From NCBI GenBank assembly GCA_964552295.1, contig CAZKFV010000121.1, forward strand, positions 2,227 through 66,226: a DNA stretch of 64,000 bases. Reading direction: 5' to 3'. Positions 19,082-54,767 of this stretch are shown here, in pieces. A program made the position numbers and the translations under genes. Below the pieces are notes generated by a model. That model had not been told where the DNA came from. It ran no database searches and saw only the letters and a program-made list of their open reading frames with translations. Position 1 is the first letter of the stretch. Each line of letters starts with the position of its first letter. The stretch is from an uncultured Thermotogae bacterium (GTDB lineage: Bacteria > Bipolaricaulota > Bipolaricaulia > UBA7950 > UBA9294).

Positions 19082-19110
19082 TATTGATAGATGGAAGGGA
19101 AGAAGAGCCG

Positions 19111-25164: not shown

Positions 25165-26526
25165 CTAATCGCTCGGAGGAGGCTGGATGTGCCCTGCATC
25201 CATCAGGATTTTTGTCTCTTCCTGAGCGTGATGGATCTTCGTCTCTGCTTCCCGACGCAGCTCATCCTCGGTAAGCTCACGGCGCGCAATTCCCTGTTCA
25301 ATTGCCTTCAGTCCAACTGCAACTGCCTCATTTATGAAAACATCAGTCTCCATCATCGTCGGGACAATATAATTTTCATTGATGCCCTTGTCCTCCGCTG
25401 TCTTCGCGATAGAGTACGCAGCAGCAATTGCCATCTCGTCTGTTATCGTCTTCGCAAACACATCAAGTGTCCCTCGGAAAATGCCGGGGAAGCCAATCGA
25501 ATTGTTCACTTGGTTAGCAAAATCAGACCTGCCGGTTCCTACAATTCGTACTCCAGCCTCTTTTGCCTCCCATGGCCAGATCTCCGGGGTGGGATTTGCC
25601 ATGATGAAGGCAACGGCATCTTTGTTCATTGCCATCAGCCATTCTTTCTTTATCGTCCCTGGGCCAGGCTTGGAAGCAGCTATCAGTACATCACTCCCCT
25701 CAATCGCTTTTTCCATATCTCCGGCACGCCCTTCCTGATTCGTTACCTGGGCGTAGTGCCACTTGTACGGATTGTTGCCCTTGTTCTTCTCCAGATCCTC
25801 ACGACCTGGGTGAAGAATGCCCTTGCTGTCCACCATGACAACGTTACCAGCAGGTACCCCAGCACTCAGAAGAATCCTAACAAAAGCTATATTAGCTGCA
25901 CCCGTTCCAATTACACAGTAAGTCACCTTGTTTATATCCTTTGAGACCACCTTCATTGCATTGATTACCCCGGCCAGGGTGATCGAGGCCGTGCCTTGCT
26001 GATCATCATGCCACACCGGTATGTCTAGCTCCTGGCGTAGGCGATCAAGAATGTAGAAACACTTGGGGTTGGCTAGATCTTCCAGGTTAACCCCTCCAAA
26101 TCCCGGAGCTATCCATTTTACTGCCTGTATTATTTCGTCAGGGTCCTCTGTATCCAACATAATCGGGAATGCTCCTACTCCCCCGAGAAACTTAAATAGG
26201 AGAGATTTACCCTCCATTACAGGAAGCCCTGCGTGCGGACCAATGTTCCCCAAACCTAGCACACGCGACCCGTCTGAAACAACCGCCACTGTGTTGGCCT
26301 TGTTCGTATAATCAAAAACCTTGCTCTGGTCTGCTTCAATCTCTCTACAGGGAGCGGCCACGCCGGGGGTATACCAAATTCCAAAGTCATCTACCTCTCT
26401 AACAGCACATTTCAGCGTGGTCTCAACCTTACCTCGATAGAAAGCGTGCCATGAAGGTGCCTTCTTGGCCGGTATCTCCGCTTTTTGCTTCATTTCCTCT
26501 ACGGTAAGCTTATCTTCCTCCATCAC
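25165..26526 (-). CDS. NAD(P)-dependent malic enzyme (small form)
   Basis: Has the malic enzyme NAD-binding segment (VIGTGAANIAFVRIL) and the catalytic region (YTPGVA...GLPVMEGKSLLFK). The 453-aa product is the last gene of the large operon. Confidence 0.85.
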   Translation of the reverse strand: MMEEDKLTVEEMKQKAEIPAKKAPSWHAFYRGKVETTLKCAVREVDDFGIWYTPGVAAPCREIEADQSKVFDYTNKANTVAVVSDGSRVLGLGNIGPHAGLPVMEGKSLLFKFLGGVGAFPIMLDTEDPDEIIQAVKWIAPGFGGVNLEDLANPKCFYILDRLRQELDIPVWHDDQQGTASITLAGVINAMKVVSKDINKVTYCVIGTGAANIAFVRILLSAGVPAGNVVMVDSKGILHPGREDLEKNKGNNPYKWHYAQVTNQEGRAGDMEKAIEGSDVLIAASKPGPGTIKKEWLMAMNKDAVAFIMANPTPEIWPWEAKEAGVRIVGTGRSDFANQVNNSIGFPGIFRGTLDVFAKTITDEMAIAAAYSIAKTAEDKGINENYIVPTMMETDVFINEAVAVGLKAIEQGIARRELTEDELRREAETKIHHAQEETKILMDAGHIQPPPSD

Positions 26527-27113
26527 TCCCCCTTCTCGATCTGATCGCGGATCTTCTGCATATTAATCTGTACAGCCTCGTCCACAGACTTGTACAAGCT
26601 TTCCCCATGAGCATCCATGGCTACAGCTAGAGGCCCGAATTTAGTCACTGACATGACCCACACTGCCTCTGGAATTCCTAGTTCCGAAAGCCAATGTACA
26701 TCAGTCACTTCGTCTATCGCCCGAGCCGCCAACGCACCCGCACCACCGGTGTAATGAGTGTAAACAGCTCCCGTGTTCTTCAACGCGGCTAGAGTCTTTT
26801 CCCCCATCCCACCTTTTCCAATGATCACCCGGACCGGAAAGGTTTCCAAAAAGCGATCCTCGAAGATCTCCATCCTGGCAGATGTAGTGGGACCAGCGGA
26901 GACAATCTTCCATTTGCTATCTTCCTTTTTTACTACTGGTCCACAGTGATAAAGACCTAGCCCTTCCAGAGGGAAAGGCTCTCCTTGTTCAAGCATCTTT
27001 AGGTGTGCCTCGTCACGGGCAGTGAATATCGTCCCCGTAATATAGATGACATCACCTACATGCAGATCACGTGCTTCTTCTTCTGAAATTGGAGTATTCA
27101 GCACTTTCTCCAT
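26523..27113 (-). CDS. Fumarate hydratase class I (Fe-S hydro-lyase), beta subunit
   Basis: The 196-aa product matches the tartrate/fumarate Fe-S hydrolyase beta family (IIGKGGMGEKTLAAL...YTGGAGALAA). Confidence 0.85.
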   Translation of the reverse strand: MEKVLNTPISEEEARDLHVGDVIYITGTIFTARDEAHLKMLEQGEPFPLEGLGLYHCGPVVKKEDSKWKIVSAGPTTSARMEIFEDRFLETFPVRVIIGKGGMGEKTLAALKNTGAVYTHYTGGAGALAARAIDEVTDVHWLSELGIPEAVWVMSVTKFGPLAVAMDAHGESLYKSVDEAVQINMQKIRDQIEKGE

Positions 27114-27114
27114 T

Positions 27115-27975
27115 TTAGCTCACCTCTATCTTACCGCTAGCATCAATCATTACCCTCGCCCTCCTATCAGCCCAGCATTGATAGACAATCCCTACCGGCA
27201 GCGAAGCAGGGTGACGGTGAGCGTACTCGATATGCACGTCAAGGCACGTGGTTTTGCCGCCCATTCCCATTGGCCCAATCCCGCTTTGGTTAATCAGATC
27301 ACGCAAGCTTTCTTCCAGCAGTGCTACATTATCTTCCTTGTGACGAGAACCGACCGGTCGCAATAATGACAGCTTACCAAGCTTGAGGGACAGATCCGCT
27401 CCGCCACCGATTCCAACTCCCACAATTCCTGGAGGGCACGGTTTTCCCGCACAAGCAACTACGTGGTCTACAACGAATCGCTTTATGCCCTTAATTCCCA
27501 CTCCAGGAGAAAGCATCCCCAAGCCGCCGCAGTTCTCGCTTCCCCCTCCCTTGGGGAGAAGATCAATTACACATTCATTCCCATCTACAATCTCCCAAGA
27601 GATATAAGGCACGTGGTACCCAACATTATCGCCAGGATTCTCGCCGGTAAATGGATGAACCGTATTGGGACGAAGCGGTACTTGCATTGTTGCCCTACGA
27701 ACAGCCTCCGCTATTACAGATCTCAGGGAAGAAAGACCAGGAAAGTCCGCCCCAACACGTACAATAAAGGTCTGAATACCGGTATCTTGACACATTGGAA
27801 TGGATCCGTCCCGCGCGGCATCAACGTTCTTAAGCATCGCCTCTAACTGTACCCGCGCGGCGCCTTCCTCCCTTTCCCTGGCCTCTTCTAATGCCAGGAT
27901 AACATCGTTAGGCAAAATTGTCTCAGCAATACGCACTGCATCGACTAACTGCCCTATTAGTTCCTCATCGTTCAT
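27115..27975 (-). CDS. Fumarate hydratase class I (Fe-S hydro-lyase), alpha subunit
   Basis: The 286-aa product contains SIPMCQDTGIQTF, the alpha-subunit catalytic Cys motif. It is coupled to the beta subunit. Confidence 0.85.
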   Translation of the reverse strand: MNDEELIGQLVDAVRIAETILPNDVILALEEAREREEGAARVQLEAMLKNVDAARDGSIPMCQDTGIQTFIVRVGADFPGLSSLRSVIAEAVRRATMQVPLRPNTVHPFTGENPGDNVGYHVPYISWEIVDGNECVIDLLPKGGGSENCGGLGMLSPGVGIKGIKRFVVDHVVACAGKPCPPGIVGVGIGGGADLSLKLGKLSLLRPVGSRHKEDNVALLEESLRDLINQSGIGPMGMGGKTTCLDVHIEYAHRHPASLPVGIVYQCWADRRARVMIDASGKIEVS

Positions 27976-28856
27976 CCGCCATTCCCTCCAAAGTGTTCAT
28001 TGACAAAGTTAGCGTATATTTCCAGGTAGTCGGGTTTTTCTCGGTTAACAAAGGTACCCACTATGAACTCTTCACCTGGTATAATTTCAGCGTCCTTGGG
28101 GTCAGAAAAATTTTTAATCACAGCCTTTTCTTGATAGTAGCGCATCTCATCAAGCGCGGTAGGAAGACGGTTCCTGCGGCCATAATTCGTCGGACATGGA
28201 CCAATGATCTCAACAAATGTAAAACCTCGCTTATTTATCGCTTCTTCCATCGCTCTCTGTAACCTATGTACATGCAGTGTAGTCCACCTCGCCACGTACG
28301 GAGCCCCAGACGATGCAGCTAAATAAGGAAGATTGAAAGGATGCTCGAACATTCCATATGGCGCAGTCGTCCCCTTTGCTCCCATCGGCGTCGTTGGCCC
28401 AACCTGTCCGCCCGTCATTCCATAGTTAAAGTTATTGACACATAAAACAGTAAGATCTATATTGCGGCGTGCGGCATGAATGAAGTGATTACCGCCTATA
28501 GAGAACAAATCTCCATCTCCGCTAAACACAACCACTTTTTGACCCGGCTTAGTCTTTTCCAGAGCTACGCGCAGGCCAGTAGCAAATGGTAAAGCCCTTC
28601 CATGTGTGGTGTGGTAAGAATCCGGGCGCATATAGCCAGCTAGCCGCCCAGAACAGCCGATGCCGGACACGATACTCACATCGTCCACATCGAGTCCCAG
28701 CCTATCAAATGTCGCCGCCAAACAGGACATAGATGTACCCAAGCCGCACCCAGAACACCAGATGTGAGGAAGACGCTCGCTTCGAAAGTAATGCTCAAGT
28801 GGATGACGAACATCGTTGACTATCTCGGGCTTTGGCTTAGTCACTAAACGTTTCAT
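27972..28856 (-). CDS. 2-oxoacid:ferredoxin oxidoreductase beta subunit (TPP-binding); likely 2-oxoglutarate synthase KorB from context
   Basis: Contains WCSGCG, the TPP/Fe-S region GDGD and the TPP-fold motif VVFSGDGDLFSIGGNHFIHAAR. Confidence 0.85.
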   Translation of the reverse strand: MKRLVTKPKPEIVNDVRHPLEHYFRSERLPHIWCSGCGLGTSMSCLAATFDRLGLDVDDVSIVSGIGCSGRLAGYMRPDSYHTTHGRALPFATGLRVALEKTKPGQKVVVFSGDGDLFSIGGNHFIHAARRNIDLTVLCVNNFNYGMTGGQVGPTTPMGAKGTTAPYGMFEHPFNLPYLAASSGAPYVARWTTLHVHRLQRAMEEAINKRGFTFVEIIGPCPTNYGRRNRLPTALDEMRYYQEKAVIKNFSDPKDAEIIPGEEFIVGTFVNREKPDYLEIYANFVNEHFGGNGG

Positions 28857-30001
28857 TTCGCCACCTCCTCTATCGCCGCAAGAATATCCTCCGGCCGGTG
28901 GAGACCTCCTCCTGCGTGGGGAACCAGGCGTACGACAGTCTGTCCAGCGGCTGCCCGCTCCACTTCGTTCACTATTTGGCCAAGGTTCAATTCAGGCACA
29001 ACTAGTCCCTTTACATCTCCTGCGATAGCACGCACCTGCTCTAAAGGAAATGGCCACACTGTGATCAATCTCAGCATGCCCACTTTGATACCTTTTTCCT
29101 CCGCCAATTCAATTGCTCGTGCAGAGGTGCGGGCAGCTATTCCATAGGTAACCACTACTACATCCGCTCCCCGAATGTTCTCCTTCTCGACCTCTATAAT
29201 CTGGTCTTTGTTAAGCCGGATCTTGTTGAGCAGGCGATTCATCAGTTTAGCCTGGGCCTCTTCCGATAGGTCAGGGTATCCCTGCTCGTCGTGGGTCAAA
29301 CCCGTTACATGGATCCTGTATCCCTGTCCAGCATTGGCCATCTCCGGCACCAAATCTGCTGTTCCCTTGTAAGGGAGGAACTGCTCATAGGGAACGCTTG
29401 GCTTACGGCGCGGATAGACCTCGATTTTGTCCGGATCTATTATCACTCGCTCCATCATATGCCCTACTACCTCGTCGGCCATTACCAAAACAGGCTGGCG
29501 GAATCTCTCAGACTGGTTAAACGCCTTTACTGTATGATCAAACATCTCTTGGGGAGAAGCTGGAGCATAGGCAATGATCTCATGATCACCATGCGTTCCC
29601 CATCGCGCTTGCATCATATCTTGCTGAGAAGTTGCTGTAGGAAGACCGGTGCTGGGACCGCCACGCTGCACATCTACTACTACACAGGGAGTCTCCGTCA
29701 TTATTCCCAGGCCCAGATTCTCCATCATCAGGGAGAAACCTGGACCGGAGGTAGCTGTCATAGCTTTCATTCCTCCCCAGGCTCCTCCAAGAATAGCAGC
29801 GATGGATGCCAGCTCGTCCTCCATTTGAAGAAAAAACCCTCCTATCGTAGGCAGACGGAGCGCCATGCGCTCCATAATCTCCGATTGAGGAGTAATCGGG
29901 TAACCGGCGAACAAGCGACAACCAACAGCTATCGCTCCCTCGGCACAGGCAACATCTCCATTTAGGAAATGCTCTCCAGCAAGGATATCCTTGTCACTCA
30001 T
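28853..30001 (-). CDS. 2-oxoacid:ferredoxin oxidoreductase alpha subunit (KorA-like)
   Basis: The N-terminus ILAGEHFLNGDVACAEGAI is typical of Kor/Por alpha subunits. The start was moved to the ATG at 30001, which has an AGGTGA SD (the ORF track starts at 30046, inside korD). Confidence 0.85.
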   Translation of the reverse strand: MSDKDILAGEHFLNGDVACAEGAIAVGCRLFAGYPITPQSEIMERMALRLPTIGGFFLQMEDELASIAAILGGAWGGMKAMTATSGPGFSLMMENLGLGIMTETPCVVVDVQRGGPSTGLPTATSQQDMMQARWGTHGDHEIIAYAPASPQEMFDHTVKAFNQSERFRQPVLVMADEVVGHMMERVIIDPDKIEVYPRRKPSVPYEQFLPYKGTADLVPEMANAGQGYRIHVTGLTHDEQGYPDLSEEAQAKLMNRLLNKIRLNKDQIIEVEKENIRGADVVVVTYGIAARTSARAIELAEEKGIKVGMLRLITVWPFPLEQVRAIAGDVKGLVVPELNLGQIVNEVERAAAGQTVVRLVPHAGGGLHRPEDILAAIEEVAK

Positions 30002-30275
30002 GCCTCTCACCTTCTTGTATGTTGTCGCGTTCACTCCAAATCGCAAAATCAGGACAGAGAAGCTGACAGTAAGCGCAGTTTACGCATTTTTCTGGGTAGA
30101 GCATTTCGGGATAATGATAACCCTTCTCATTGAACTCCTCTGATTGTCCCAGTACTTGCATTGGACAGAAATTGATACACAACTCACATCCCTTGCACAA
30201 GTTATCAACAATTGTTATGGTACCTTTCGCCGTCTTCCATCGCTTGCCGGTATTCACCGCATTAGCTTCCTTCAT
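29994..30275 (-). CDS. 2-oxoacid:ferredoxin oxidoreductase delta subunit (2x[4Fe-4S] ferredoxin)
   Basis: The 93-aa product has CKGCELCINFCP and CVNCAYCQLLCP motifs and sits immediately upstream of korA. Confidence 0.72.
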   Translation of the reverse strand: MKEANAVNTGKRWKTAKGTITIVDNLCKGCELCINFCPMQVLGQSEEFNEKGYHYPEMLYPEKCVNCAYCQLLCPDFAIWSERDNIQEGERHE

Positions 30276-31933
30276 AGCAGATGCCCTAATGTGCGTTCAT
30301 GCACGCTCTTTGGCCGATAGTCAGGCAGGATCATCGGTGCTTTGCGATCGGTTTCAATTCCTTGTTTGACCAATGCCTTTTCGTAATCTATCACATGCTG
30401 AAGTGACAGTCGGCCTAATTTCTCTTTTTTGGCCCACTTTCCAGCAGAGATTCCTGCCCGCCGGCCAAATACGTTGTAATCAAGCTGAGAATTTCCCATT
30501 AACCGATTCTTCCCATGCACACCGCCTTCGCACTCTCCACCTGCAAAAAGGCCGGGAATTCTGGTGTGAGCATCCGCATCGATCTCTACTCCACCATTTT
30601 GATAGTGTAGCGTCGGATAAATTAGCGCCGGGTCAACGGTAATATCGATGTCGTGTCGATGCCACATGGTCCACATTGCCGCTAGGGCTTTTTTTATCGT
30701 ACCTTTACCGTGAAGCTGCTCAATCATCGGGGTGTCCAACCACACACCACGGACTCCACTTGGAGTTTCGATCCCCTTGTTCTTCACCCAGCATTCCTCG
30801 ATGATCGCTGCCGCTTCCACATCGCGTGGCTCCAAGGGAAACACAAATGCTTCCCCGTCTTTGTTCACCGGCATTGCACCTTGATTGCGCAATTTTTCGG
30901 TGGCCAATTGGCCCAAAATAGCTGCAGGGAAAGCCACACCAGTCGGATGGTACTGCACCGAGTCCATGTCAATGATATTTGCACCAGCCCGATAGGCGAT
31001 CACTAGCCCATCCGCGGTAGCGCCGTAATGATTGGTGGTGGGGAAGCCCTGAATATGAACACGCCCGAAGCCGCCTGTGGCCAGCACCGTTGCCTTAGAG
31101 CGAATTACCCGGTATTCCTCGGTCTCAATGTTGTACACAACTGCTCCAGCCGCGTGTCCGTGCTCATCAAGGATAATCTCTACTGCTGGGAAGAACTCCA
31201 AAACTGGGATATCCAGATTACGTGCCTCGTCTCTGATGGCATTGAATGTTTCTTTCCCTGTGTAGTCCTTGGCGGAATGCATGCGCATCCGAGATGTCCC
31301 TCCGCCGTGAGCCTCTACATACTCCCCATTAACCTTGTCATACATCACACCCATATCCTCGTGCCAGCGGATAATTTCTGGACCATCAGTGACTAAGGCC
31401 TTCACTAAGTCAGGCTTGTTAGCATAGTGTCCACCCCCCATTACGTCCAGATAATGTATTGCTGGTGAATCCTGTGGCCTGTCAGCTGCCTGGATTCCTC
31501 CTTGGGCCATAATCGAGTTACAGTCCCCATGGCGCAGTTTAGTAGCAATCAGTATTCTATCTACAGGAATGCCTTGCTCATGGGCGAATATTGCAGCTAC
31601 CGTTCCCGCCCCTCCACCACCGATGACTAGTACATCCACATCGTGGTCGATTTTCGAGAGATCGATCTCCCGCGGATGCAGTACTGAGCTTGACTCGAGG
31701 ATATCTGCAACTTCATGAGGTACATATTCACCAGCCGAGGGGCCTATGACCAGTTTACGCTTTCCTTCTTCCTTATAGTCCGGATGACTGCGCTTGAGGA
31801 CTTCTTCCCTTTCCTCTGCGCTCATCGGTGGAGGCGGCCCCTCTTTCAGTCGCTTGCTTCTGGTGGCTTCTACCTTTTCGATCGACTCCCGCATGTAAGC
31901 GGGGTACCCTCTAATAAATCCCTTCTTACTCAC
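30272..31933 (-). CDS. Fumarate reductase / succinate dehydrogenase flavoprotein subunit
   Basis: Has the FAD dinucleotide motif VLVIGGGGAGT and the catalytic region HYQNGGVEID...GLFAGGECEGGVHGKNRLMGNSQLD. About 95 aa at the N-terminus precede the FAD-binding motif. Confidence 0.88.
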   Translation of the reverse strand: MSKKGFIRGYPAYMRESIEKVEATRSKRLKEGPPPPMSAEEREEVLKRSHPDYKEEGKRKLVIGPSAGEYVPHEVADILESSSVLHPREIDLSKIDHDVDVLVIGGGGAGTVAAIFAHEQGIPVDRILIATKLRHGDCNSIMAQGGIQAADRPQDSPAIHYLDVMGGGHYANKPDLVKALVTDGPEIIRWHEDMGVMYDKVNGEYVEAHGGGTSRMRMHSAKDYTGKETFNAIRDEARNLDIPVLEFFPAVEIILDEHGHAAGAVVYNIETEEYRVIRSKATVLATGGFGRVHIQGFPTTNHYGATADGLVIAYRAGANIIDMDSVQYHPTGVAFPAAILGQLATEKLRNQGAMPVNKDGEAFVFPLEPRDVEAAAIIEECWVKNKGIETPSGVRGVWLDTPMIEQLHGKGTIKKALAAMWTMWHRHDIDITVDPALIYPTLHYQNGGVEIDADAHTRIPGLFAGGECEGGVHGKNRLMGNSQLDYNVFGRRAGISAGKWAKKEKLGRLSLQHVIDYEKALVKQGIETDRKAPMILPDYRPKSVHERTLGHLL

Positions 31934-32651
31934 TTATCTCACTCCCTACTACTGCTTCCTCTCTTAATCGACCAGCATACGCCTCCGCTAGCCCCTCATG
32001 ACTCATGCTGACCAGCTCATCCAGTTCAGCATCAAAAACGCCATCCTTGATTTCCTGTAGGCGTTTCTCCAGGTGTTGAGGCACCGGAGACATGTATCGC
32101 CCGTATATTCTCCGCGCCATCTGTGCCATATGATAGTGCTTGATATCCGCTGGACAGCGCATGCTACACAGACCACACTGGATGCAATCAAAAGATAGCT
32201 GCGCCGTCTTCTCAATATCACCACGCAATGCCGCTTGTATGTAATCCATTACCTCTATGTCTTGCGGACAAGCTTTTGTACAAGTATTACAAGAAACGCA
32301 GCGGGCAATCTCTGGATAGTACTGTAGGAGTACATTCTCTTTTGGGTTAATCTTCTCGATATCATACTTAACACGAGGGGCTGGGGTGAACGGTAGCTGT
32401 ACCAGGTACATACCCTCCACTGCCGTCTCCTGGCAAGCAAGGGTAAACTGTAGCCGGTAGTCTCCTTCCTGGCGATAAACAGTCGAACAGGCGCCACAGA
32501 ACCCAGACCGACAACCCGCGCCTCGGGTGAACCGATAGCCAGCGTACTCCATTGCATCCATTATAGTTAGGCCCGCAGGAACCTCGTAGGTCTTGCCCAT
32601 AATATGGATGTGGATCATTTCAGATTTCTGGTCTTTCTTCTTACTTTCCAT
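31926..32651 (-). CDS. Fumarate reductase / succinate dehydrogenase iron-sulfur subunit
   Basis: Has the 2Fe-2S motif CRSGFCGACS, plus CVSCNTCTKACP and CIQCGLCSMRCP for the 4Fe-4S/3Fe-4S clusters. Confidence 0.85.
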   Translation of the reverse strand: MESKKKDQKSEMIHIHIMGKTYEVPAGLTIMDAMEYAGYRFTRGAGCRSGFCGACSTVYRQEGDYRLQFTLACQETAVEGMYLVQLPFTPAPRVKYDIEKINPKENVLLQYYPEIARCVSCNTCTKACPQDIEVMDYIQAALRGDIEKTAQLSFDCIQCGLCSMRCPADIKHYHMAQMARRIYGRYMSPVPQHLEKRLQEIKDGVFDAELDELVSMSHEGLAEAYAGRLREEAVVGSEISE

Positions 32652-32652
32652 C

Positions 32653-33537
32653 TCATCCCTCCCCCTTAACCGTCTGAACGCGCTTTAGTTTAGCCTTGAG
32701 CGGGGCGGGAATTACTCCAGTCTCCACGTCCAACGCCAGCGCCATCAATTGGGTGAAATAGATAATCGGCATCTCTTCGTAGTCGGGAACTGTGCGAATA
32801 AGCTCTTTTTGTGTATCACTCAGGTTATAGTGGCAGAGAGGACAACTGGTGATCACTACATCTGCGCCAGCCTTTCTTGCACTGCTCAATATCCTATGCG
32901 TGCGTTCAATTACAACATCTCGATGATCAACAACCTGGTACGCCCCACAACACTCAACCGAATAAGCGTAATCTATAGGAGTTGCCCATAATGACGTTAT
33001 CAGGTCTTCAAGTACGGTTGGAGCATCCGAATCATCTATAGCTATCTCTTCAGGCCGCAAAAGCGTGCATCCGTAGAATGTGGCAACCGATAATCCTTCC
33101 AAGGAATTAGTCATCCTCTCTTCGATCCGTTCCCAGCCTATGCGGTCACGTAGAATCTCAAGTAGGTGATACACATTAACTTGACCCTTGTAGTCAACCT
33201 CTCTGTTCATAAATGCGTTCAGCTTATCCAATCGCTCTTGATTGCCGTTGACAAATAAGCTTGCTCGCTTCAGGGTGGCATAACACATGGAACACAGGGT
33301 AATTATCTCGTTCGAGCCCGCCTCTTGAGCACGTATCATATCTCTCACTGGAGCAACTTGATGCATCAAGTCGTCTTCAGTGAGTGAGAACACTGTTCCA
33401 CAACAGTTCCAGCGATCGAGCTCTTTCAATTCGTAACCTAGCGCCTCCATCACCGCCATACCCGATATCTCAAAATCGCGGGCAGTATCCTTCAATGTAC
33501 AGCCTGGAAAATAGGTCAATTTCTCCAATTCTTTCAC
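32653..33537 (-). CDS. Heterodisulfide reductase subunit B-like (two CCG domains)
   Basis: Carries two Cys-rich CCG domains (NCCGTVFSL and ECCGAYQV) plus the C-terminal CPLCHYN motif. Confidence 0.8.
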   Translation of the reverse strand: MKELEKLTYFPGCTLKDTARDFEISGMAVMEALGYELKELDRWNCCGTVFSLTEDDLMHQVAPVRDMIRAQEAGSNEIITLCSMCYATLKRASLFVNGNQERLDKLNAFMNREVDYKGQVNVYHLLEILRDRIGWERIEERMTNSLEGLSVATFYGCTLLRPEEIAIDDSDAPTVLEDLITSLWATPIDYAYSVECCGAYQVVDHRDVVIERTHRILSSARKAGADVVITSCPLCHYNLSDTQKELIRTVPDYEEMPIIYFTQLMALALDVETGVIPAPLKAKLKRVQTVKGEG

Positions 33538-33965
33538 CCGGTCTTCTTTCTAAACGCAGCGACAACCGCGATTTGCGGTAGGCGCCGAATCTCTTTGTGG
33601 CTGAGGCCATCTAGCGATACGTGGTCAAGTCTTTTGCGCAAATAGATCTGCCGCATCGCTTCCATTACCTTAGCTAAATCAACTTCCTTCGGGCAGCGCA
33701 CTTGGCATGTATAGCAGCTTGCGCAGATCCACATCGAGTTTGCTGTCATCGCCCTCGGGTCCTTTACTTGTAATGCGTGAAGTATCTGATTTGGCATCAG
33801 ATCCATTTGCTCAGCCATTGGGCAACCAGCAGAGCACATTCCGCATTGGTAGCAGTCAAATATGTTCTGGCCCGAAAGCTCCTCAATTTTTTCCACTATC
33901 TCATCCATTGGAAGTTCAAGAAGCGCCAATTCCTCCTCGGCCGTGGGCTGCTTGGTCTTGGTCAT
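33534..33965 (-). CDS. Heterodisulfide reductase subunit C-like (2x[4Fe-4S])
   Basis: Has the motifs CYQCGMCSAGCP and CASCYTCQVRCP. Confidence 0.8.
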   Translation of the reverse strand: MTKTKQPTAEEELALLELPMDEIVEKIEELSGQNIFDCYQCGMCSAGCPMAEQMDLMPNQILHALQVKDPRAMTANSMWICASCYTCQVRCPKEVDLAKVMEAMRQIYLRKRLDHVSLDGLSHKEIRRLPQIAVVAAFRKKTG

Positions 33966-35263
33966 GGTACCCTCCAGTGCTCAATCATCTTTCCCTCTTT
34001 ATCTCTCATAGTAATCAGGAGTGAGAACTCAGCCTTGGGCTCAAAAGCTGGCTGGTAAGCGCTAATAACGTTCGCTATTCGCTCGGCCGTCGCCTCAGTG
34101 ACCTCATGCCCGCTACTGTTCACAACAGCAGAAATAGCGGCTTTTACCTCCGATGCGAGGAGCTCCCCCGTAGGAGCAATTTGCGCTTGGGCAACCATCC
34201 CCTGCTTATCCAGAACGTAACGATGGATCGCCGTACCGCAAGCTCCTTCTATCGCTGCTATGCCTTCGCCTGGTTCGTTCAAGGAGCAATGGATATCAGA
34301 ATTGCCGGTCTCTAGTTGCTCTAACTCTTGGGATAAGAGCTCTGCTGCCTGCACCAGCTCTATCACCGTTGCCCAGTGCCCGACAGCAGCCAAGTGAACC
34401 GGCGGTTGGCCAACCACTTCAAACAACTTCTCCTGTGAACGCCTTGCCTCCGGCGTTGACGCCTGGCAACCAACGTTTATACGGGCCAGAGGCCCGACAC
34501 GAAGTGGCAGCTTCTCTTTCCAGGCTGCAACCTTCGCTAAGATCTTCTTTGCATCGCCCTTAGCAAATTCAGTCCCTTTGGGATCAACAATTCGCAGCGT
34601 ACCCTGGTAGAAACTGCAAGCCCCTGAATCATCTACTGTCGCTAGAGAATAGGCTTGTGTAAGCACTCCTTGCTCTTTTACCCATGCCGCATAACAAGTA
34701 CGAAACTCTTCCTCTATTCGCAAGGAAAAATCTAGCAGGTTTGCAGCAATATCCTTGGCACGTGCTAGCTCTTTATCGGTTATTCCTCTAGTCAGCCCAC
34801 CTGGAACTAGCCGTTCTGGTGTAATCCCACGGCCTCCCAGTATCCCGATAGCTTCGCCAGCGCCACTAAGAGCGCCAAACACATCGCCTGCCTCCGCTTC
34901 ATCAGTCATTACCAAGCTCGAGATGCCATCACTTCCACTCGGGCGACTGAAGAAAAGCTGCTGCAAGTGAGCAAAAAATACTCCAAGGTAAGCAAGTGCG
35001 TGTCGAATCCTCAAAGCTTTCTGGGGTAGTATCACCTGGTAACACCTATCAAGGGCGCTCACAGCAGCTAGGTGATTAGCCATCCCACAATGAGCATCAA
35101 TTCGCTGAGCGTACAAGGGGATGTCTTCTGCTAGCCTGCCACGCATGTACAAGGCGAAACCATCGCGTGCTTTCTGAATTGGGACGCTGGCGGAAATCGG
35201 ATCGCCCTTTACTAACTCCACCAGATCGAAGTGACTCACCGGCATGATTCTCTTACTCTCCAT
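33962..35263 (-). CDS. [NiFe]-hydrogenase large-subunit-like protein (MvhA-like) that appears to lack the Ni-Fe ligand cysteines
   Basis: A 433-aa protein in the MvhA position. Its N-terminal motif RIDAHCGMANH replaces RxCGxCxxxH, and the C-terminus (SAYQPAFEP...HWRVP) has no DPCxxC motif. Confidence 0.55.
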   Translation of the reverse strand: MESKRIMPVSHFDLVELVKGDPISASVPIQKARDGFALYMRGRLAEDIPLYAQRIDAHCGMANHLAAVSALDRCYQVILPQKALRIRHALAYLGVFFAHLQQLFFSRPSGSDGISSLVMTDEAEAGDVFGALSGAGEAIGILGGRGITPERLVPGGLTRGITDKELARAKDIAANLLDFSLRIEEEFRTCYAAWVKEQGVLTQAYSLATVDDSGACSFYQGTLRIVDPKGTEFAKGDAKKILAKVAAWKEKLPLRVGPLARINVGCQASTPEARRSQEKLFEVVGQPPVHLAAVGHWATVIELVQAAELLSQELEQLETGNSDIHCSLNEPGEGIAAIEGACGTAIHRYVLDKQGMVAQAQIAPTGELLASEVKAAISAVVNSSGHEVTEATAERIANVISAYQPAFEPKAEFSLLITMRDKEGKMIEHWRVP

Positions 35264-36143
35264 CGTTAACCCTCCCTTTCAAAACAGAGGAAGCAGCCGA
35301 ATACTTGTACGCTGTACCGACGATATCGAGCACGGAATCCAGCACCTTACGTCCCTTTGCCTCTTTACCTTCCCCCGAGAAGGAAACTAAGGAGGCAAGA
35401 GCATGCAGGATTGCTGCTCCCTGATCTCGCACTCCGGCAACTGATCCTGAGCAGCCGGTACACGGACGGTTGGACTTTAGGCATACAGCGCCACATCCAC
35501 CTCTGGTGACAGGGCCGAGGCAGATATACCCCTGATCTATAAGACAAATCTCTGGATCGGGTGGAGAAGCATGGTATCGCTTGATCTCGGTAAGAGGGTT
35601 ATGAATATGTCGACGGTCGCACTCCGCGCATACCGCCTTTTCATTGGCAAAAACAGTCCCTTGGTCTGGTGCTTGGTCTGAAAGCAAAAGCTCTTCGATC
35701 ATCCTTTCAATCATTGTCTGCGGTGGTGGACAGCCAGCAATGATGTAATCAACGTCGATAACCGCAGGCAGCGGCTGGACAAATTCTCCATTAGCTTCTG
35801 CGCGCCCCCTCAATTGTGCCCCAGGGGCTACGTTCGCTAGTCCACAAAGCCCTCCAAGATGAGCACATGCCCCATAAGCTACAACTCGTCTTGCCTTACA
35901 GCGCAGAAGCTTGGCCACAGCTACAGCCTCTTGTCCGTGGACAGGGCCAACGTACATAAGAATGTCGATGTCTCGATCACCGTATTTGTCTATATCATCC
36001 ACAGTAAGATCGCCCTCTTCAGTGGCCCAGAAGAGGAGCTCTGCTGAGTTGAGCATCTTTTTCAGGCTCGGGCTTAGCAAAAGCGACTGACTGCACCCGC
36101 CACATCCACTTGCAGCGTAGATTGCCAAGTTCTTTTTAGGCAT
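35253..36143 (-). CDS. [NiFe]-hydrogenase small-subunit-like Fe-S protein (MvhG-like)
   Basis: Has the Cys clusters GCGGCSQS, GACAHLGGLC, CAECDRRH and CLGPVTRGGCGAVCLKSNRPCTGCSG, and sits between mvhD and the mvhA-like gene. Confidence 0.65.
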   Translation of the reverse strand: MPKKNLAIYAASGCGGCSQSLLLSPSLKKMLNSAELLFWATEEGDLTVDDIDKYGDRDIDILMYVGPVHGQEAVAVAKLLRCKARRVVAYGACAHLGGLCGLANVAPGAQLRGRAEANGEFVQPLPAVIDVDYIIAGCPPPQTMIERMIEELLLSDQAPDQGTVFANEKAVCAECDRRHIHNPLTEIKRYHASPPDPEICLIDQGYICLGPVTRGGCGAVCLKSNRPCTGCSGSVAGVRDQGAAILHALASLVSFSGEGKEAKGRKVLDSVLDIVGTAYKYSAASSVLKGRVNDGE

Positions 36144-36561
36144 TTGACATCACCGGACTCGGCCCTAATGCACGGATATCTTCGGTAAAAGTCTCTACAG
36201 CCCGCTGGAAGATCAGGCCTTGCGCCCCTGCGATCCCCACCTCGCGGATTCTCTCAGGGTTAAACCCGAACTCCTTAAGGGCTCTTTTCATCAGGTAAAT
36301 TCGGTTTGACTCTTTGAGGTTTCCGCCCTCATAGCGACAATGGCCCGGACGGCACCCACCAATTAGAATCCCGTCCGCTCCCTTTTCAAAAGCTGATAGA
36401 ATCATGTCCGAACTTACTTCACCCGTACAATTGACCCGGATGATCGAGACATTGGATGCGTAAGGCATTCGACTGACGCCGCAAAGATCAGCAGCAGCAT
36501 AGGTTGTCCACTTACATAAGAAAGCGATTATCTTTGGCTGAAATTCAGTATTCTGACTCAT
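36136..36561 (-). CDS. Methyl-viologen-reducing hydrogenase delta subunit (MvhD/FlpD family)
   Basis: The N-terminus KIIAFLCKWTTYAAADLCG...VSIIRVNCTGEVS matches the MvhD signature (KIVAFxCNWCSYAGADLAG...IRVMCSG) with some substituted Cys. Confidence 0.75.
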   Translation of the reverse strand: MSQNTEFQPKIIAFLCKWTTYAAADLCGVSRMPYASNVSIIRVNCTGEVSSDMILSAFEKGADGILIGGCRPGHCRYEGGNLKESNRIYLMKRALKEFGFNPERIREVGIAGAQGLIFQRAVETFTEDIRALGPSPVMSNA

Positions 36562-38513
36562 ATTCCACTTCCCAGAGCGGCTGCGATCATGCTCTCTATC
36601 TGCTCTTGCCGCTCATTCCTAACCTCGATCGCTCCCGCTGGACATGACGCGGCACAGATACCGCATCCTGAGCAGAGGATTTCATTTACTACCGCAATGC
36701 CGGACCGCTCAACCTTAACCGCGTCGTAAGGGCAAACGAACTCACATATTCCACACCCCGAGCAGAGAGCTTCTTTGACTGAGGCTACCTCGGGAGAGTG
36801 GCTAAGTTTATCAGCTGCCAGGATAGCAATGGCTTTCGATGCTGCCGCACTTCCTTGAGCGACCGAATCAGGAATATCCTTTGGCCCTTGTACGGTTCCC
36901 GCGATGAATACCCCAGCTGTGGTTGTATCTACCGGCCGCAGCTTCGGATGGGCTTCCTTGAGAAAACCATTCTCATCCACGTTGATATGGAACGTCTTGG
37001 CTAACTCGGATGTTCCCTCGCTAGGAACTATCGCCATTGCCAACACAACTAAGTCCACATCCAGCTCAACCTGTCTACCGCTTAAGGTATCCGCCCCCCA
37101 GACAGTAAGGTGATCTCGTTCATTCACTATCTTGGCAACCTTTCCCCGAATGTAGCTAATACGTTGTCCAGAGATAATACCTTGAGCGAATTCCTCGTAG
37201 CCCTTCCCGTCCGTGCGAACATCTATGTAAAAGACACTTGCCTGGCCATCAGGCACGGCCTTTTTGAAGAGTAGCGCGTGCTTTACAGTGTAAGTACAGC
37301 AAATTCTTGAGCAATAAGGCTTGTGCCTTCCTGGATCACGCGATCCCGCGCAGTGGACAAACGCGATTCTCTTTACCGGTCGTCCGTCGGACGGCCTTTT
37401 CAACTGCCCCTTCATTGGCCCAGATGGATGCACCATTCGCTCAAACTGAAGAGAGGTGACAACATCCGCGTACTTCCCTCCGCCATACTCAGTGAGGTGG
37501 CTTGGATCGTACAGGTCGTAGCCCGTGGCAACAATTATAGCAGCTACCTTTTCCGTAATGATCTCAGGCGCCATATCATAGTCAATAGCCCCTACGTCGC
37601 ATACTTCCTGACACAATCCACAACGAATAGGTTTTACTCCCAGGCACACGTCTTCATCCAGCACATATGAAGAAGGAATGGCCTGCTCAAAAGGCAAATA
37701 AATAGCCTTACGTTCAGACAAAGCCTCGTTGAACTCCTCTTTAGTGCTAACCGGACATACTTCTGCGCACTTATTACACAAATTGCACTTGTCTGCATCA
37801 ACATAGGTTGGTCTCTTACGAATTGTCACCTCGTAGTTTCCAGTGTAGCCAGCAACCTTAATCACCTCGCTATAGGTAAGAAGCCTAATGTTAGGATGTC
37901 GAGAAGCTTCAACCATACGAGGGGTGAGTATGCATTGGGCGCAGTCAAGGGTCGGAAAGGTAACAGACAGCTGCGCCATATGCCCCCCGATGCTCGGATC
38001 CTTTTCCACTAGAATAACTTGGTGCCCGCTGTTAGCTACGTCTATGGCTGCTTGAATCCCGGCGATCCCTCCACCCACCACAAGGCACTTCGTTTCATGA
38101 TCTACAGCGATGGGAAAGAGGTCAATGTCACCGCGCACTTTTTCCACCGCAGCACGCGTTATACGGATTGCTTTCTCGGTTGCTATCTCCCGATCCGAGT
38201 GCACCCAGCTCACCTGCTCACGGATATTGGCTACCTCAAGGCGGTAACGGTTTAGTCCAGCTTCTTCAGCCGCGTTTCGGAAAGTCTCTTGGTGCATTGA
38301 TGGAGTGCATGAAGCAACCACAACTCCATCCAACTTGTGCTCTACGATCGCGGTGCGGATCTTCTCTTGTCCGATCTCAGAGCACATGTAATCGTAATCT
38401 TCAGAATGTACAACCCCGGGATACTCGCCTACTGCTTCTGCTACCCGGCGTGTATCCACCGTCTCCTCGATATTCATCCCGCAATGACACACAAAAACAC
38501 CTATTCGGCTCAT
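36558..38513 (-). CDS. Heterodisulfide reductase subunit A (FAD and Fe-S, bifurcating flavoprotein family)
   Basis: Has the HdrA N-terminal 4Fe-4S motif VFVCHCGMNI, the FAD motif LVVGGGIAGIQAA and inserted and C-terminal ferredoxin domains (CNLCNKCAEVCP, CGLCQEVC, CSGCGICEFVCP, CSGCGICAASCP). Confidence 0.88.
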   Translation of the reverse strand: MSRIGVFVCHCGMNIEETVDTRRVAEAVGEYPGVVHSEDYDYMCSEIGQEKIRTAIVEHKLDGVVVASCTPSMHQETFRNAAEEAGLNRYRLEVANIREQVSWVHSDREIATEKAIRITRAAVEKVRGDIDLFPIAVDHETKCLVVGGGIAGIQAAIDVANSGHQVILVEKDPSIGGHMAQLSVTFPTLDCAQCILTPRMVEASRHPNIRLLTYSEVIKVAGYTGNYEVTIRKRPTYVDADKCNLCNKCAEVCPVSTKEEFNEALSERKAIYLPFEQAIPSSYVLDEDVCLGVKPIRCGLCQEVCDVGAIDYDMAPEIITEKVAAIIVATGYDLYDPSHLTEYGGGKYADVVTSLQFERMVHPSGPMKGQLKRPSDGRPVKRIAFVHCAGSRDPGRHKPYCSRICCTYTVKHALLFKKAVPDGQASVFYIDVRTDGKGYEEFAQGIISGQRISYIRGKVAKIVNERDHLTVWGADTLSGRQVELDVDLVVLAMAIVPSEGTSELAKTFHINVDENGFLKEAHPKLRPVDTTTAGVFIAGTVQGPKDIPDSVAQGSAAASKAIAILAADKLSHSPEVASVKEALCSGCGICEFVCPYDAVKVERSGIAVVNEILCSGCGICAASCPAGAIEVRNERQEQIESMIAAALGSGI

Positions 38514-39052
38514 GATTTCAGCTTCCTCCCATAGTCATAGCCCTCTTCGAACGCCTCTTTGTTCAGTTCGCAGAAGCGGGGAGGAACGGAAGCCTGAACT
38601 GAATCCAGCATTGCATCCTTGCTCACCATACCGGTGATAGCCACTATTGCTCCTAACATGACAACGTTGGCCACAACCCTGTTTCCTAAGCCCTCCGCCA
38701 ACTTCGTTGCCGGAACCTTATATAGGTGCACATCATCGTGAATCTCCCCCAGAGAAACCAAGTCCTCATCAACAATGAGGGTTCCTCCCTTGGCGATGGT
38801 TGAGCCAAAAGTGGTATACGCCTCTTGGGACATGATCACTAGTATATTGGGGGTTGTTACATTAGGATAAGAGATCCGATCTTGTGAGATGACAACATTG
38901 GCGCTGCATGCGCCTCCGCGCGCTTCAGGACCATAAGATTGTGTAAGAACAGCATTTAGATTGTCGTGGACTGTGGCAGCCCGCCCAGAAATCTTGGCGG
39001 CCGATATGATTCCTTGGCCGCCAAAGCCAGCAAACCGAACTTCTGTTCGCAT
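38510..39052 (-). CDS. 2-oxoacid:ferredoxin oxidoreductase gamma subunit (KorC-like)
   Basis: The 180-aa product contains the gamma-subunit motif GFGGQGIISAAKISG...QSYGPEARGG. It is separated from korDAB by the hdr/mvh/frd genes. Confidence 0.8.
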   Translation of the reverse strand: MRTEVRFAGFGGQGIISAAKISGRAATVHDNLNAVLTQSYGPEARGGACSANVVISQDRISYPNVTTPNILVIMSQEAYTTFGSTIAKGGTLIVDEDLVSLGEIHDDVHLYKVPATKLAEGLGNRVVANVVMLGAIVAITGMVSKDAMLDSVQASVPPRFCELNKEAFEEGYDYGRKLKS

Positions 39053-39164: not shown

Positions 39165-40031
39165 TCATATAATGTCATTTATTGCATGCCCTATCTTGGC
39201 GGGACTCTCCACTACAGTGACACCTGCTTGAGTAAGGGCAGTGATCTTTGCAGCGGCTGTCCCGCTTCCACCGGTCACTATCGCTCCCGCGTGTCCCATC
39301 CGCCTTCCTGGAGGTGCAGTACGCCCAGCAATAAAAGCTACAACAGGTTTACTGACATGTTCGGATATGTAATGAGCAGCTTCCTCCTCCGCACTACCTC
39401 CTATTTCTCCAATCAATACCATCGCCTCTGTTTGTGAATCAGCTTCAAACATCTCTAACAAATCGATAAACGAAAGACCGACTATGGGGTCTCCTCCCAT
39501 TCCTACACATGTTGACTGTCCTATTCCTCGCTGCGATAGCTGGTTTACCGCCTCATAGGTCAAAGTACCACTACGCGACATAACCCCCACACTTCCTTGC
39601 CGATGGATGTACCCTGCCATTAGGCCCAATTTCGCTTTACCTGGAGATATAATACCAGGTGTATTAGGCCCGATAAGCTTAGTGTGGTGAATGTCCAGGT
39701 ACCTACGGACATGTACCATGTCATTCACTGGAATCCCCTCAGTTAGGCATATGACAAGCTCGAGGCCTGCTTCCGCTGCTTCCAAGATGGCATCAGCGGC
39801 AAACCTAGGAGGAACAAAGATCATGGACACATTCGGATTGCAATTCTCAACCGCCTCGCTAACCGTATTGAATACTGGTACACCATGAACAGCCTGTCCC
39901 GCCTTGCCAGGGGTAACGCCGGCCACAACATTAGTGCCGTAAGCAATCATCTGTTCTGTATGAAAGCTACCTTCCCTTCCAGTAATCCCCTGAATCAGCG
40001 CTCGCGTATTCTCATCAACTAAGATGCTCAT
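39165..40031 (-). CDS. sucD: Succinyl-CoA synthetase alpha subunit
   Basis: The N-terminus is [27 protein letters not shown]; the product also carries the CoA-binding and phosphohistidine loop. Confidence 0.92.
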
Positions 40032-41196
40032 TCTTTTCCCCTCCTAGCGCTTGAGCAACTAGTGTCGCTGCCTCGTCTAAGTCACTAGCCCGCAGAAATT
40101 CAAGTCCTGATTGAGCAAGGATGTCTCTTCCTTCCTCAACGTTTGTACCCTCCAATCGCACAATCACCGGAACCTGAACCTGCAGTCTCTTGACCGCAGC
40201 TACAATGCCACGCGCCAGAATGTCGCAGCGCAGTATTCCACCGAATATGTTGATGAACACCGCTCGCACATCCGGGTCAGAAAGCAAGAGCGAAAAACCC
40301 TTCTCGATCATTTCCTCGTTCGCGCTTCCCCCAACATCTAAAAAGTTCGCAGGAGTTGCTCCAGCAAGCTTGATTAGGTCCATGGTGGCCATAGCTAAGC
40401 CTGCTCCATTGACCAAGCAACCAACATTGCCATCAAGCTTAATGTAATTCAAGTGGTTCTTCTTTGCTTGCGATTCAAGTGGGTTTTCCTCGTTTGGGTC
40501 TTGTAGCTTTTCAATCTCCGGGTGGCGAAAGATCCCGTTATCATCGAAGTTAATCTTCGCGTCTAGTGCGATGACGTCATCCTCAAAATCGACCACTAAC
40601 GGGTTGATCTCCACTAACATACAATCCTTATCCAAGAACAAGCGGTAAAGGTTGTTTATTATCTTTGCTACTTGTGATGTGGCCTGCGTGCTCAGTCCTA
40701 ATTTTACCGCCAGCCGGTAGCACTGAAACGCACGTAAACCAATCTCAGGCCAAACCCATTCCTTGAAAATCCTGTCCGGGAAATCTTTGGCTATCTGCTC
40801 GATTTCCATTCCCCCAGCAGGGCTAGCCATGATTACGGGGAGTCTTCGGTAACGGTCAATCGTAATCCCTAAGTAGATCTCCGTCTTGACCTTGGTTGCT
40901 TCCTCAATGAGGACCCGATGCACCACACGCCCTTCAGGGCCAGTTTGGTGTGTAACTAGCGGATAATTAAGGATCTTCTCTGCAAAATGCCCTGCTTCTT
41001 GGGCGGAGTCAACTATCTTCACCCCTCCCGCCTTCCCTCTTCCCCCCGCGTAGATCTGAGCTTTCACTACGACTGGACCAGAGAAAGCAGAGGCCACTTT
41101 GCTTGCCTCACTTGGCGTGGAAACCACATTTCCAGCCGGCACGGGGATGGAGAAGGAAGAGAACAGCTCTTTAGCTTGATACTCGTGAACCTTCAT
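40015..41196 (-). CDS. sucC: Succinyl-CoA synthetase beta subunit (ATP-grasp)
   Basis: The N-terminus is [12 protein letters not shown]...[18 protein letters not shown]. The start has a GGAGG RBS. Confidence 0.92.
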
Positions 41197-54759: not shown

Positions 54760-54767
54760 CTTTCCTC

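Follow-up and report, generated by a model that had tools for sequence, protein, structure and literature searches.

The gene and its locus

The window analysed here, a 64,000-nucleotide stretch of contig CAZKFV010000121.1 (assembly GCA_964552295.1) from a Bipolaricaulota bacterium deposited as an uncultured Thermotogae, carries on its minus strand an operon with the gene order sucC-sucD-korC-hdrA-mvhD-mvhG-mvhA'-hdrC-hdrB-frdB-frdA-korD-korA-korB-fumA-fumB-malic enzyme. The subject of this analysis is mvhA', a homologue of the large-subunit gene of group-3c [NiFe] hydrogenases whose product has lost the ligands of the NiFe centre. It stands where mvhA would be expected (mvhD-mvhG-mvhA, followed by hdrC), as the first-pass annotation had stated, and it overlaps both of its neighbours, mvhG' and hdrC, by a few bases. 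The gene and the segments of its product discussed below are the following.

33962..35263, minus strand: mvhA', ligand-less group-3c [NiFe]-hydrogenase large-subunit homologue; open reading frame (ORF) of 433 amino acids (aa) with an ATG start
35072..35104, minus strand: remnant of the L1 motif, RIDAHCGMANH (residues 54-64); Cys1 replaced by Asp56, Cys2 kept as Cys59
34238..34240, minus strand: Cys342, in place of the catalytic Arg of PRGxxxH; EGACGTAIH for the canonical EA(A/P)RGTLIHH
34028..34060, minus strand: remnant of the L5 motif, AYQPAFEPKAE (residues 402-412); Cys3 replaced by Ala406, Cys4 by Pro409
33965..34027, minus strand: conserved C-terminal tail (residues 413-433, ...LLITMRDKEGKMIEHWRVP), homologous to the canonical C-terminal extension

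Kinship and fold of MvhA'

The NCBIfam VhuA model recognizes residues 20-362 of MvhA' (E=7e-28, 97 bits), well under the model cut-off of 800, which is also not reached by the canonical MvhA1 of locus L005 (393 bits). The Pfam family PF00374 (NiFeSe_Hases) is passed narrowly, at 29.7 for a cut-off of 25.8, and by the N-terminal 60 residues alone. A phmmer search of the PDB gave the solved MvhA 5odc_F as the top match (E=6e-25), and the same chain headed the Foldseek matches in the PDB (TM-score 0.75, probability 1.00), followed by HydABCSL and Hox large subunits, when the search was made with an AlphaFold2 model of MvhA' obtained from an alignment of 31 homologues (mean predicted local distance difference test score 86; predicted TM-score 0.87). 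The initial identification of the protein as an MvhA-like large subunit is thus confirmed. No complex I chain was present in the best 50 of the 457 Foldseek matches, and the NuoBCD model matched MvhA' over 54 residues only (E=0.003). With group 3 hydrogenases as the top fold matches and so weak a NuoBCD match, a specific kinship with NuoD was rejected.

The C-terminal tail of MvhA' aligns with those of proteins P0015-18 and of the L005 MvhA1, and it is predicted to form a beta hairpin (strands 415-420 and 426-432 of the AlphaFold2 model). Unlike L016 and L100, two loci described below in which a hycI-type gene is found, no protease gene lies 3' of mvhA' among the ORFs of the window. Neither a flavin- or nucleotide-binding motif nor an additional domain was found in MvhA' with Pfam and NCBIfam. 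As judged from its sequence, MvhA' is a member of the MvhA lineage by descent, yet it lacks the features by which a [NiFe] hydrogenase is defined.

Loss of the NiFe ligands and of the active-site shell

The L1 remnant aligns column by column with RICGICQVAHH of 5odc_F (phmmer) and with RICGVCPEAHH of the canonical relatives, leaving Cys59 as the only remaining ligand residue, in agreement with the earlier proposal that at most one Cys had been kept. At the C-terminal end, ISAYQPAFEPKAE of MvhA' aligns with IRAYDPCL... and YDPCLACATH, and the phmmer alignment to 7t2r_D places ISAYQPAF of MvhA' beneath IRAYDPCL. Ala406 and Pro409 therefore occupy the Cys positions, and the His of the L5 motif has no counterpart, a 5-residue gap following Lys410 in the multiple alignment with canonical relatives. 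Thus, the DPCxxCxxH motif, reported as missing, is indeed absent, three of the four Cys are replaced, and a misalignment by eye, which had been a concern, does not account for the difference. In the alignment of 14 proteins of the mvhA' family, P405, A406, P409 and A411 are invariant.

The surroundings of the former active site have changed as well. The catalytic-Arg position is variable in the family (C/S/R/N/D/A), the N-terminal L0 motif RxEGHG is deleted, and the His of GGRxxHP is Thr148. In an alignment of 24 canonical MvhAs from operons of this type, 198 columns show a conservation of 95% or more. Of these columns, the mvhA' family keeps no more than 49 and has 26 fixed to another residue, and 40 have become variable, among them those of the catalytic Arg, of the THN motif and of the GGRxxHP His. 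With these replacements, MvhA' is predicted to be unable to hold a NiFe centre in the canonical manner.

Selenocysteine, or a split large subunit of the VhuU type, was considered and rejected as the explanation of the missing ligands, since the codons at the former ligand positions are ordinary sense codons (GAT, TGT, GCT and CCC), TGA does not occur in frame, none of the frames of the 64-kb window encodes a DP(C/U)xx(C/U) or Rx(C/U)Gx(C/U) peptide, and the segment homologous to L5 is present, though mutated.

Family, integrity and selection

Searching 5.8 billion proteins with a word-indexed method gave 14 close relatives of MvhA' in all, with 43-100% identity, and an exhaustive search of 1.84 billion representatives with a profile hidden Markov model gave three full-length family members at 566-776 bits, the next score being 185 bits. 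This gap and the few relatives indicate a small and sharply delimited family. From proteins and loci together, a set of 23 family sequences was assembled. All 23 lack Cys1, Cys3 and Cys4, and the L5 motif is lost in each of them; in the basal members Cys59, the former Cys2, is Ser, Ile or a gap, so that none of the four Cys is left there.

The whole set of 23 copies is intact and nearly constant in length (426-435 aa) at identities down to 42%, and 70 alignment columns are invariant among the 14 family proteins. The ratio of non-synonymous to synonymous substitution rates (dN/dS) of mvhA' was 0.26 (dS 0.21) and 0.17 (dS 0.52) in two unsaturated pairs, with 0.05 for the adjacent hdrC fragment. 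No frameshifted or shortened mvhA' copies were seen in otherwise intact operons of close relatives. The constraint on mvhA' is, on these estimates, relaxed but real, and its classification as a pseudogene was rejected on the basis of the dN/dS values and of the 23 intact copies. An assembly artefact was also rejected, as the identical protein is encoded on 11 contigs and the four places shown belong to four different Joint Genome Institute (JGI) samples, which also means that the loss of ligands is not an assembly error.

The same operon order recurs in L098 and in seven genome loci, of which five bear the label Candidatus Bipolaricaulota and the other two are entered as ‘uncultured bacterium’ and ‘uncultured Thermotogae’, respectively. 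Together with the dN/dS values, this bears out the view that the gene has been kept within a tightly coupled operon. Within it, mvhA' is the fastest-evolving gene: identity to the orthologues of the window is 78-90% for HdrA, MvhD, HdrC, HdrB, FrdA and FrdB, 63-70% for MvhG' and 42-55% for MvhA'. In locus L008 (3300001335, ML8, the oldest of the metagenome assemblies), two calls each stand for korB and for the gene of the malic enzyme (16408-17273 and 18722-20049); both genes are intact in the window and in newer assemblies, and the splits are probably frameshift errors of that assembly.

The partner subunits

The three genes upstream of mvhA' complete, with it, a divergent hdrA-mvhD-mvhG-mvhA set that is designated module 2, to distinguish it from the canonical, or live, set (module 1) beside which it is found in some loci.

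35253..36143, minus strand: mvhG', small-subunit homologue with three intact [4Fe-4S] sites; best PDB match 5odc_E, E=2e-40
36136..36561, minus strand: mvhD', [2Fe-2S] connector with a rearranged Cys pattern; PF02662, E=4e-42
36558..38513, minus strand: hdrA of module 2, flavin-based bifurcating subunit with FAD domain; NCBIfam HdrA2/HdrA, 786 and 633 bits

The first-pass annotation had noted that the MvhG-like subunit keeps its Cys clusters, and all 12 of the Cys residues that ligate iron-sulphur (Fe-S) clusters are in fact invariant, both in seven family members and in the canonical copies. An additional, family-specific Cys, Cys100, is also invariant and lies seven residues past the third ligand of the proximal cluster (GGLCGLAN for GGVIGLAN). 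With respect to canonical MvhG of the same operon type, MvhG' has two loop deletions, of 12 and 9 residues, at residues ~105-125.

In MvhD', residues 16-27 (36481-36516, minus strand) read FLCKWTTYAAADLCG in all seven module-2 copies and in none of 16 canonical ones, the latter having FLCRWCxYAGADLAG in 16 of 16. One Cys of the CxxC pair is replaced by Thr, and a new Cys is found 8 residues downstream, again in seven of seven copies; GGCHPGDCHY of canonical MvhD has become GGCRPGHCRY. The rearrangement suggests that the [2Fe-2S] connector cluster is ligated differently or lies in changed surroundings.

HdrA of module 2 keeps every Fe-S Cys column. At residue 512, where 15 of 15 canonical HdrAs have Cys (KIGCGSEGF), every module-2 HdrA has Val, Ile or Leu (HINVDENGF), and 25 more columns separate the two groups, with a cluster of them at residues 352-367. 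A direct donor to HdrA, hinted at by similarity to Methanosarcina HdrA2, was considered and left no signal, module-1 and module-2 HdrA scoring 813 and 808 bits, respectively.

The remainder of the operon

Downstream of mvhA', and further out on both sides, the operon encodes the other subunits of the presumed complex and enzymes of a reductive branch of the tricarboxylic acid (TCA) cycle.

33534..33965, minus strand: hdrC, subunit with two [4Fe-4S] clusters; Pfam and NCBIfam, 78-85% identity among orthologues
32653..33537, minus strand: hdrB or SdhE-like, two CCG domains; PF02754 twice, HdrB model 165 bits, SdhE model 150 bits
31926..32651, minus strand: frdB-like Fe-S subunit ([2Fe-2S] and 4Fe-4S dicluster domain); Pfam, NCBIfam
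30272..31933, minus strand: frdA or tfrA-like fumarate reductase flavoprotein; PF00890 E=1e-65, TfrA model 294 bits for a cut-off of 718
38510..39052, minus strand: korC, gamma subunit of a 2-oxoacid:ferredoxin oxidoreductase; Pfam and NCBIfam
27972..30275, minus strand: korD (ferredoxin-like, 29994-30275), korA (28853-30046) and korB (27972-28856); ORFs, Pfam of identical genes
39165..41196, minus strand: sucC and sucD, succinyl-CoA synthetase; ORFs, annotation of identical genes
25165..27975, minus strand: fumA and fumB (class I fumarase) and malic enzyme; ORFs, annotation of identical genes

The translation of hdrB shows both Cys...CCG...CxxC patterns. The parts of a thiol:fumarate reductase (TFR), namely the FrdA flavoprotein, an Fe-S subunit and a CCG-domain protein, are all encoded, with FrdB, HdrC and HdrB as separate proteins; the TfrB model reached 45 on the proteins of the window for a cut-off of 385. 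The kor genes are split around the hdr-mvh-frd block (27972-39052), with korC upstream and korD-korA-korB downstream, and the same arrangement is found in about 30 loci from distant lineages, of which L019, L022 and L024 are examples. The split arrangement hints at a physical or stoichiometric coupling of Kor, Hdr and Frd.

No hyp, hycI/hyc or other hydrogenase gene was found within the 64-kb window, and neither the operon nor the window contains a formate dehydrogenase (Fdh), FrhB/ElpB or NAD(P)H donor module. No membrane subunits are encoded with the MvhA' complex.

Two further groups of genes on the minus strand of the window may be mentioned. At 50779-57775, a possible secreted or cell-surface set consists of a 1351-aa protein that resembles beta-propeller proteins only weakly (Reg_prop, PorZ_N) and, after it, a 280-aa ORF without a Pfam match and a 722-aa subtilase. 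At 43541-44032, upstream of folB/folK, a Cys-rich 163-aa ORF with no Pfam match corresponds to an unannotated 161-aa gene on the identical contigs.

Canonical counterparts and tandem modules

A metagenome scan with a canonical MvhA, together with a classification of all loci, gave at least 30 loci in which a MvhA having both RxCGxC and DPCxxC is encoded in gene for gene the same operon. In L016, for example, the order is hdrA-mvhD-mvhG-mvhA(canonical)-hycI-hdrC-hdrB-frdB. An operon of this composition has been described in Ca. Celaenobacter (Cloacimonadota) by Williams et al. 2021 (PMC8542988) as a cluster of TFR, 2-oxoglutarate:ferredoxin oxidoreductase (OGOR), fumarase, SucCD, Mvh and Hdr, and interpreted as an H2-driven reductive TCA cycle. 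The operon with a live MvhA is to be regarded as the common ancestral form.

With respect to the module they carry, the loci of the window's own clade fall into three groups. Only the dead module is found in the window, L002-L004 and L098; L005 and L006 have two tandem hdrA-mvhDGA modules, the first live and the second dead, and a single hdrCB-frdBA set; L017 has the live module only. L001 and L007, which end upstream with their contigs, are left out of this sorting. In the first of these groups, a live module is found neither in the operon nor within 10-30 kb of it, and none of the 80 canonical MvhA loci returned comes from the samples of the window, although the collection may lack these newer samples.

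In the FrdA tree, which like that of HdrA was built by neighbour-joining and carries no support values, the clade of the window is placed among lineages with canonical Mvh, with L005 basal. In the HdrA tree, module-1 HdrA of L005 nests with the lineages having canonical Mvh, and the module-2 HdrAs fall outside these lineages as a clade on a long stem. Module 2 could have come from a transfer or could be a paralogue, either old or accelerated. On each of these possibilities, the state with the dead module alone is derived and has taken the place of a true hydrogenase; the order of events is no more than suggested by trees that carry no support values.

Some canonical-looking MvhA relatives (L050, L064, L072, L094 and others) match DPCxxC and do not match RxC[GSA]xC, and some of these loci have two mvhDGA sets. 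They may represent variant L1 motifs or further partial losses.

Recurrent loss of the ligands outside the family

Among the 147 nearest representatives outside the mvhA' family, both motifs are missing in 32 full-length proteins. A large and separate clade, here called LLPF from its shortened C-terminus (...LLPF), consists of MvhA-like proteins (MvhA'') with none of the four Cys (L012 8001-9302, P0019-P0025, P0045, P0058, P0071 and others). Its genes are found in the order hdrC-hdrB-hdrL(1117 aa)-mvhD-mvhG-mvhA'', beside small NIR_SIR-domain genes, and the HdrA of these clusters carries a fused NAD(P)H-type module; HdrL has been described (PMC2702500).

In L100 (4629-14879 of a 4.77-Mb contig), two modules composed of a GltD/NfnB-like flavoprotein, mvhD, mvhG and mvhA stand in tandem and are about 75-80% identical. 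The first MvhA is dead (NICGIA, YDPWLPYANH, with the N-terminus missing), and a HycI-like gene follows the second, which is canonical. L100 is, on this evidence, an independent and younger example of a live and dead tandem. With the LLPF clade, it points to a route taken repeatedly, in which the donor module is duplicated and one of the catalytic subunits then dies.

No description of a ligand-less MvhA was found in the open-access full-text literature searched, and to that extent the proposal that the protein represents a new variant of the Hdr-Mvh family is upheld. Such proteins can go unnoticed because surveys that filter on CxxC motifs drop them (PMC8115248).

Comparison with known systems

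With MvhAGD-HdrABC of methanogens (5ODC), the complex of the window shares the subunit set and the neighbourhood of hdrA, mvhD, mvhG, mvhA, hdrC and hdrB; MvhA is nearest to MvhA' both in sequence and in fold, and neither the Fe-S ligands of MvhG and HdrA nor the CCG motifs of HdrB have been lost. It differs in the absence of the NiFe site, in the shifted Cys of MvhD, in its bacterial host (Bipolaricaulota), and in that the high-potential branch is linked to FrdBA, and thus to fumarate, rather than to CoM-S-S-CoB. The canonical Mvh-Hdr-Frd/Tfr-OGOR cluster, known from Ca. Celaenobacter (PMC8542988) and from the 30 or more metagenome loci above, agrees in content and order (sucCD-korC-hdrA-mvhDGA-hdrCB-frdBA-korDAB-fumAB) but its MvhA has all the ligands, with hycI also present in L016, whereas they are lost in the version of the window.

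ElpA of the Methanothermobacter ElpABC-HdrABC complex is a cofactor-less homologue of FdhA and a stoichiometric part of the mobile donor arm (PMC12350162). As with MvhA', a homologue of the catalytic subunit of a donor module has lost its cofactor site and activity and has been kept in the arm. However, ElpA derives from FdhA, a molybdopterin protein, and not from a hydrogenase, and ElpB, an FAD-containing entry subunit for electrons from F420H2, has no counterpart in the operon of the window. By analogy, MvhA' would function most like ElpA, its likeness to NuoD being more distant.

In NuoD/Nqo4 of complex I, which works with NuoB, and in complexes of the Ehr/Mbx type, the large-subunit homologues also have no NiFe ligands, and the small-subunit homologue keeps the proximal cluster. 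These proteins derive from group 4 membrane-bound hydrogenases, retain one cluster only and have a quinone site on the membrane arm. MvhA' is instead derived from group 3 and belongs to a soluble complex, in which its partner MvhG' has three clusters. The analogy with NuoD/Nqo4 that the first-pass annotation had drawn therefore stands as an analogy, but not as a specific kinship, and it does not extend to the three-cluster partner or to a membrane or quinone module. MvhA'' of the LLPF clade and the other ligand-less group-3 proteins, which have at most 31% identity to MvhA' and belong to other clades, lost the ligands independently and are likewise encoded next to mvhG, mvhD and a HdrA-type flavoprotein. 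Their HdrL or GltD-like partners, however, have a fused NAD(P)H-type module as an obvious alternative donor, an addition not present in HdrA of the window.

The role of MvhA'

Taken together, the data make it probable that MvhA' is a dead descendant of a group-3c large subunit that persists as a structural component in the donor arm of a fumarate reductase coupled to Hdr and does not oxidize H2. The divergent hdrA-mvhD-mvhG-mvhA module fills the place of the true hydrogenase module in the presumed HdrA-HdrCB-FrdBA complex of this Bipolaricaulota lineage, the genes of which stand in the midst of a reductive TCA branch operon (malic enzyme, fumarase, Frd, SucCD and 2-oxoglutarate:ferredoxin oxidoreductase). 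In the Hdr complexes of methanogens, the donor arm moves with the N- and C-terminal domains of HdrA and gates bifurcation (PMC12350162). By analogy, MvhA'G'D' would be the body of such a mobile arm, needed for assembly and for the conformational gating of bifurcation, and it would have been retained because the arm acts as a structural and mobile element.

In the canonical operons, electrons from H2 would be bifurcated to fumarate, at high potential through HdrCB and FrdBA, and to ferredoxin, at low potential, and the reduced ferredoxin may feed the co-encoded 2-oxoglutarate:ferredoxin oxidoreductase; kor genes that flank the hdr-mvh-frd block fit such a coupling of ferredoxin to 2-oxoglutarate synthase. 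In lineages with the dead module only, electrons would come from a source other than H2, the candidates being reduced ferredoxin, through HdrA, or a partner encoded elsewhere; for lineages with tandem modules, electrons might also enter through the live arm of a mixed dimer. The two proposals of the first-pass annotation, a donor other than H2 or a docking of the FrdAB/HdrBC unit by the protein, are both hypothetical.

Several observations weigh against this reading. The strict conservation of the 12 Cys of MvhG' is a better fit to a wire carrying electrons to or from the MvhA' side than to ballast, and the fixed Cys rearrangement of MvhD' and the 26 refixed columns of MvhA' likewise fit a live wire better. 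No alternative donor module is encoded in the operon, and the gating role of the arm is drawn from methanogen structures, not from this complex. Furthermore, the evidence on hyp genes and on a second live Mvh is limited to the 64-kb window, and the trees are, as stated, neighbour-joining trees with no support values.

The live-wire observations are those on which a nickel-free entry site can be proposed, a minor possibility in which the interface of MvhA' and MvhG', at the former NiFe pocket by the proximal cluster, has been neofunctionalized for a donor or acceptor other than H2, in the way that NuoD/NuoB came to bind quinone. The Hdr-fumarate reductase could then bifurcate electrons from such a donor. 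The change would be a soluble counterpart of the transition from hydrogenase to NuoBD, and module 2 a Ni-independent isoenzyme arm, in the way that Elp replaces Mvh under Ni limitation. Besides the fixed changes in MvhD' and MvhA', the retention of all Fe-S ligands of MvhG' and HdrA is in its favour, as are the extra Cys of MvhG' seven residues past the third proximal-cluster ligand, the retention of module 2 where the live module is lost, the tandems of live and dead modules, which resemble alternative isoenzymes, and the Elp precedent (PMC12350162). However, Asp, Ala and Pro occupy the former ligand positions, the Cys that is left varies in the family, the active-site shell has been relaxed (40 columns) rather than fixed anew, and MvhA' is the fastest-evolving product of the operon. 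In addition, MvhA' has no flavin- or nucleotide-binding motif or extra domain, and the complex has no membrane partner for a quinone.

It is unlikely that the dead module pairs with a live HdrA-MvhDGA module, whether the latter is its tandem neighbour or lies at another place in the genome, so that H2 would still be the donor through the live arm of a heteromeric complex and the dead arm would do no more than complete the HdrA dimer. Hdr complexes are obligate dimers of heterohexamers (PMC9012536, PMC12350162), and the canonical and dead modules that share a single hdrCB-frdBA set in L005 and L006, and independently the tandem of L100, would accommodate such a pairing. On the other hand, pairing of HdrA1 with HdrA2 is putative, the window, L002-L004 and L098 have no live module in the operon or within 10-30 kb, and the samples of the window contributed 0 of the 80 canonical MvhA loci recovered, with the reservation that the collection may not hold those samples.

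That mvhA' is a decaying relic, a pseudogene in progress with no role, is very improbable: its divergence, the highest in the operon, and the loss of most catalytic motifs would agree with decay, but the dN/dS of 0.17-0.26, the 23 intact copies of near-constant length down to 42% identity, the 70 invariant columns and the translational overlaps kept with mvhG' and hdrC would not. It is hardly credible that MvhA' still works as a hydrogenase through an unusual metal site, or that the finding is an artefact in the form of a selenoprotein, a split subunit or a sequencing error; the one ligand Cys and one Asp left in the L1 remnant of the window are outweighed by the absence of TGA and of a VhuU-like peptide, the presence of a mutated segment homologous to L5, the identical protein in four independent samples, the basal family members with none of the four Cys, and the disappearance of the catalytic Arg and of RxEGH.

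Significance for Bipolaricaulota and for the Hdr-Mvh family

With MvhA' as a retained structural part of the donor arm, the lineage probably uses no H2 at this complex, contrary to the database annotation, in which the MvhA' proteins appear as ‘F420-non-reducing hydrogenase large subunit’ (JGI). Hdr-Mvh clusters of Bipolaricaulota have been interpreted as H2-recycling or H2-driven (PMC6092417, PMC9586279), an interpretation that is probably mistaken for the lineage of the window. The canonical operon is widespread and predicts a bifurcating reductase of fumarate and ferredoxin with H2, or another donor, as the source of electrons; the reduced ferredoxin so predicted would match the need of 2-oxoglutarate synthase one to one, a coupling noted merely in passing in the literature searched. 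Should MvhA' and MvhG' instead form a nickel-free entry site, the tandem live and dead modules would be alternative arms, used for example under nickel-replete and nickel-poor conditions. The mvhA' family provides a natural experiment on the role of the donor arm of Hdr complexes apart from catalysis: with the live arm duplicated, one copy dead, and some lineages maintaining the dead copy alone under selection, a structural or gating role becomes testable.

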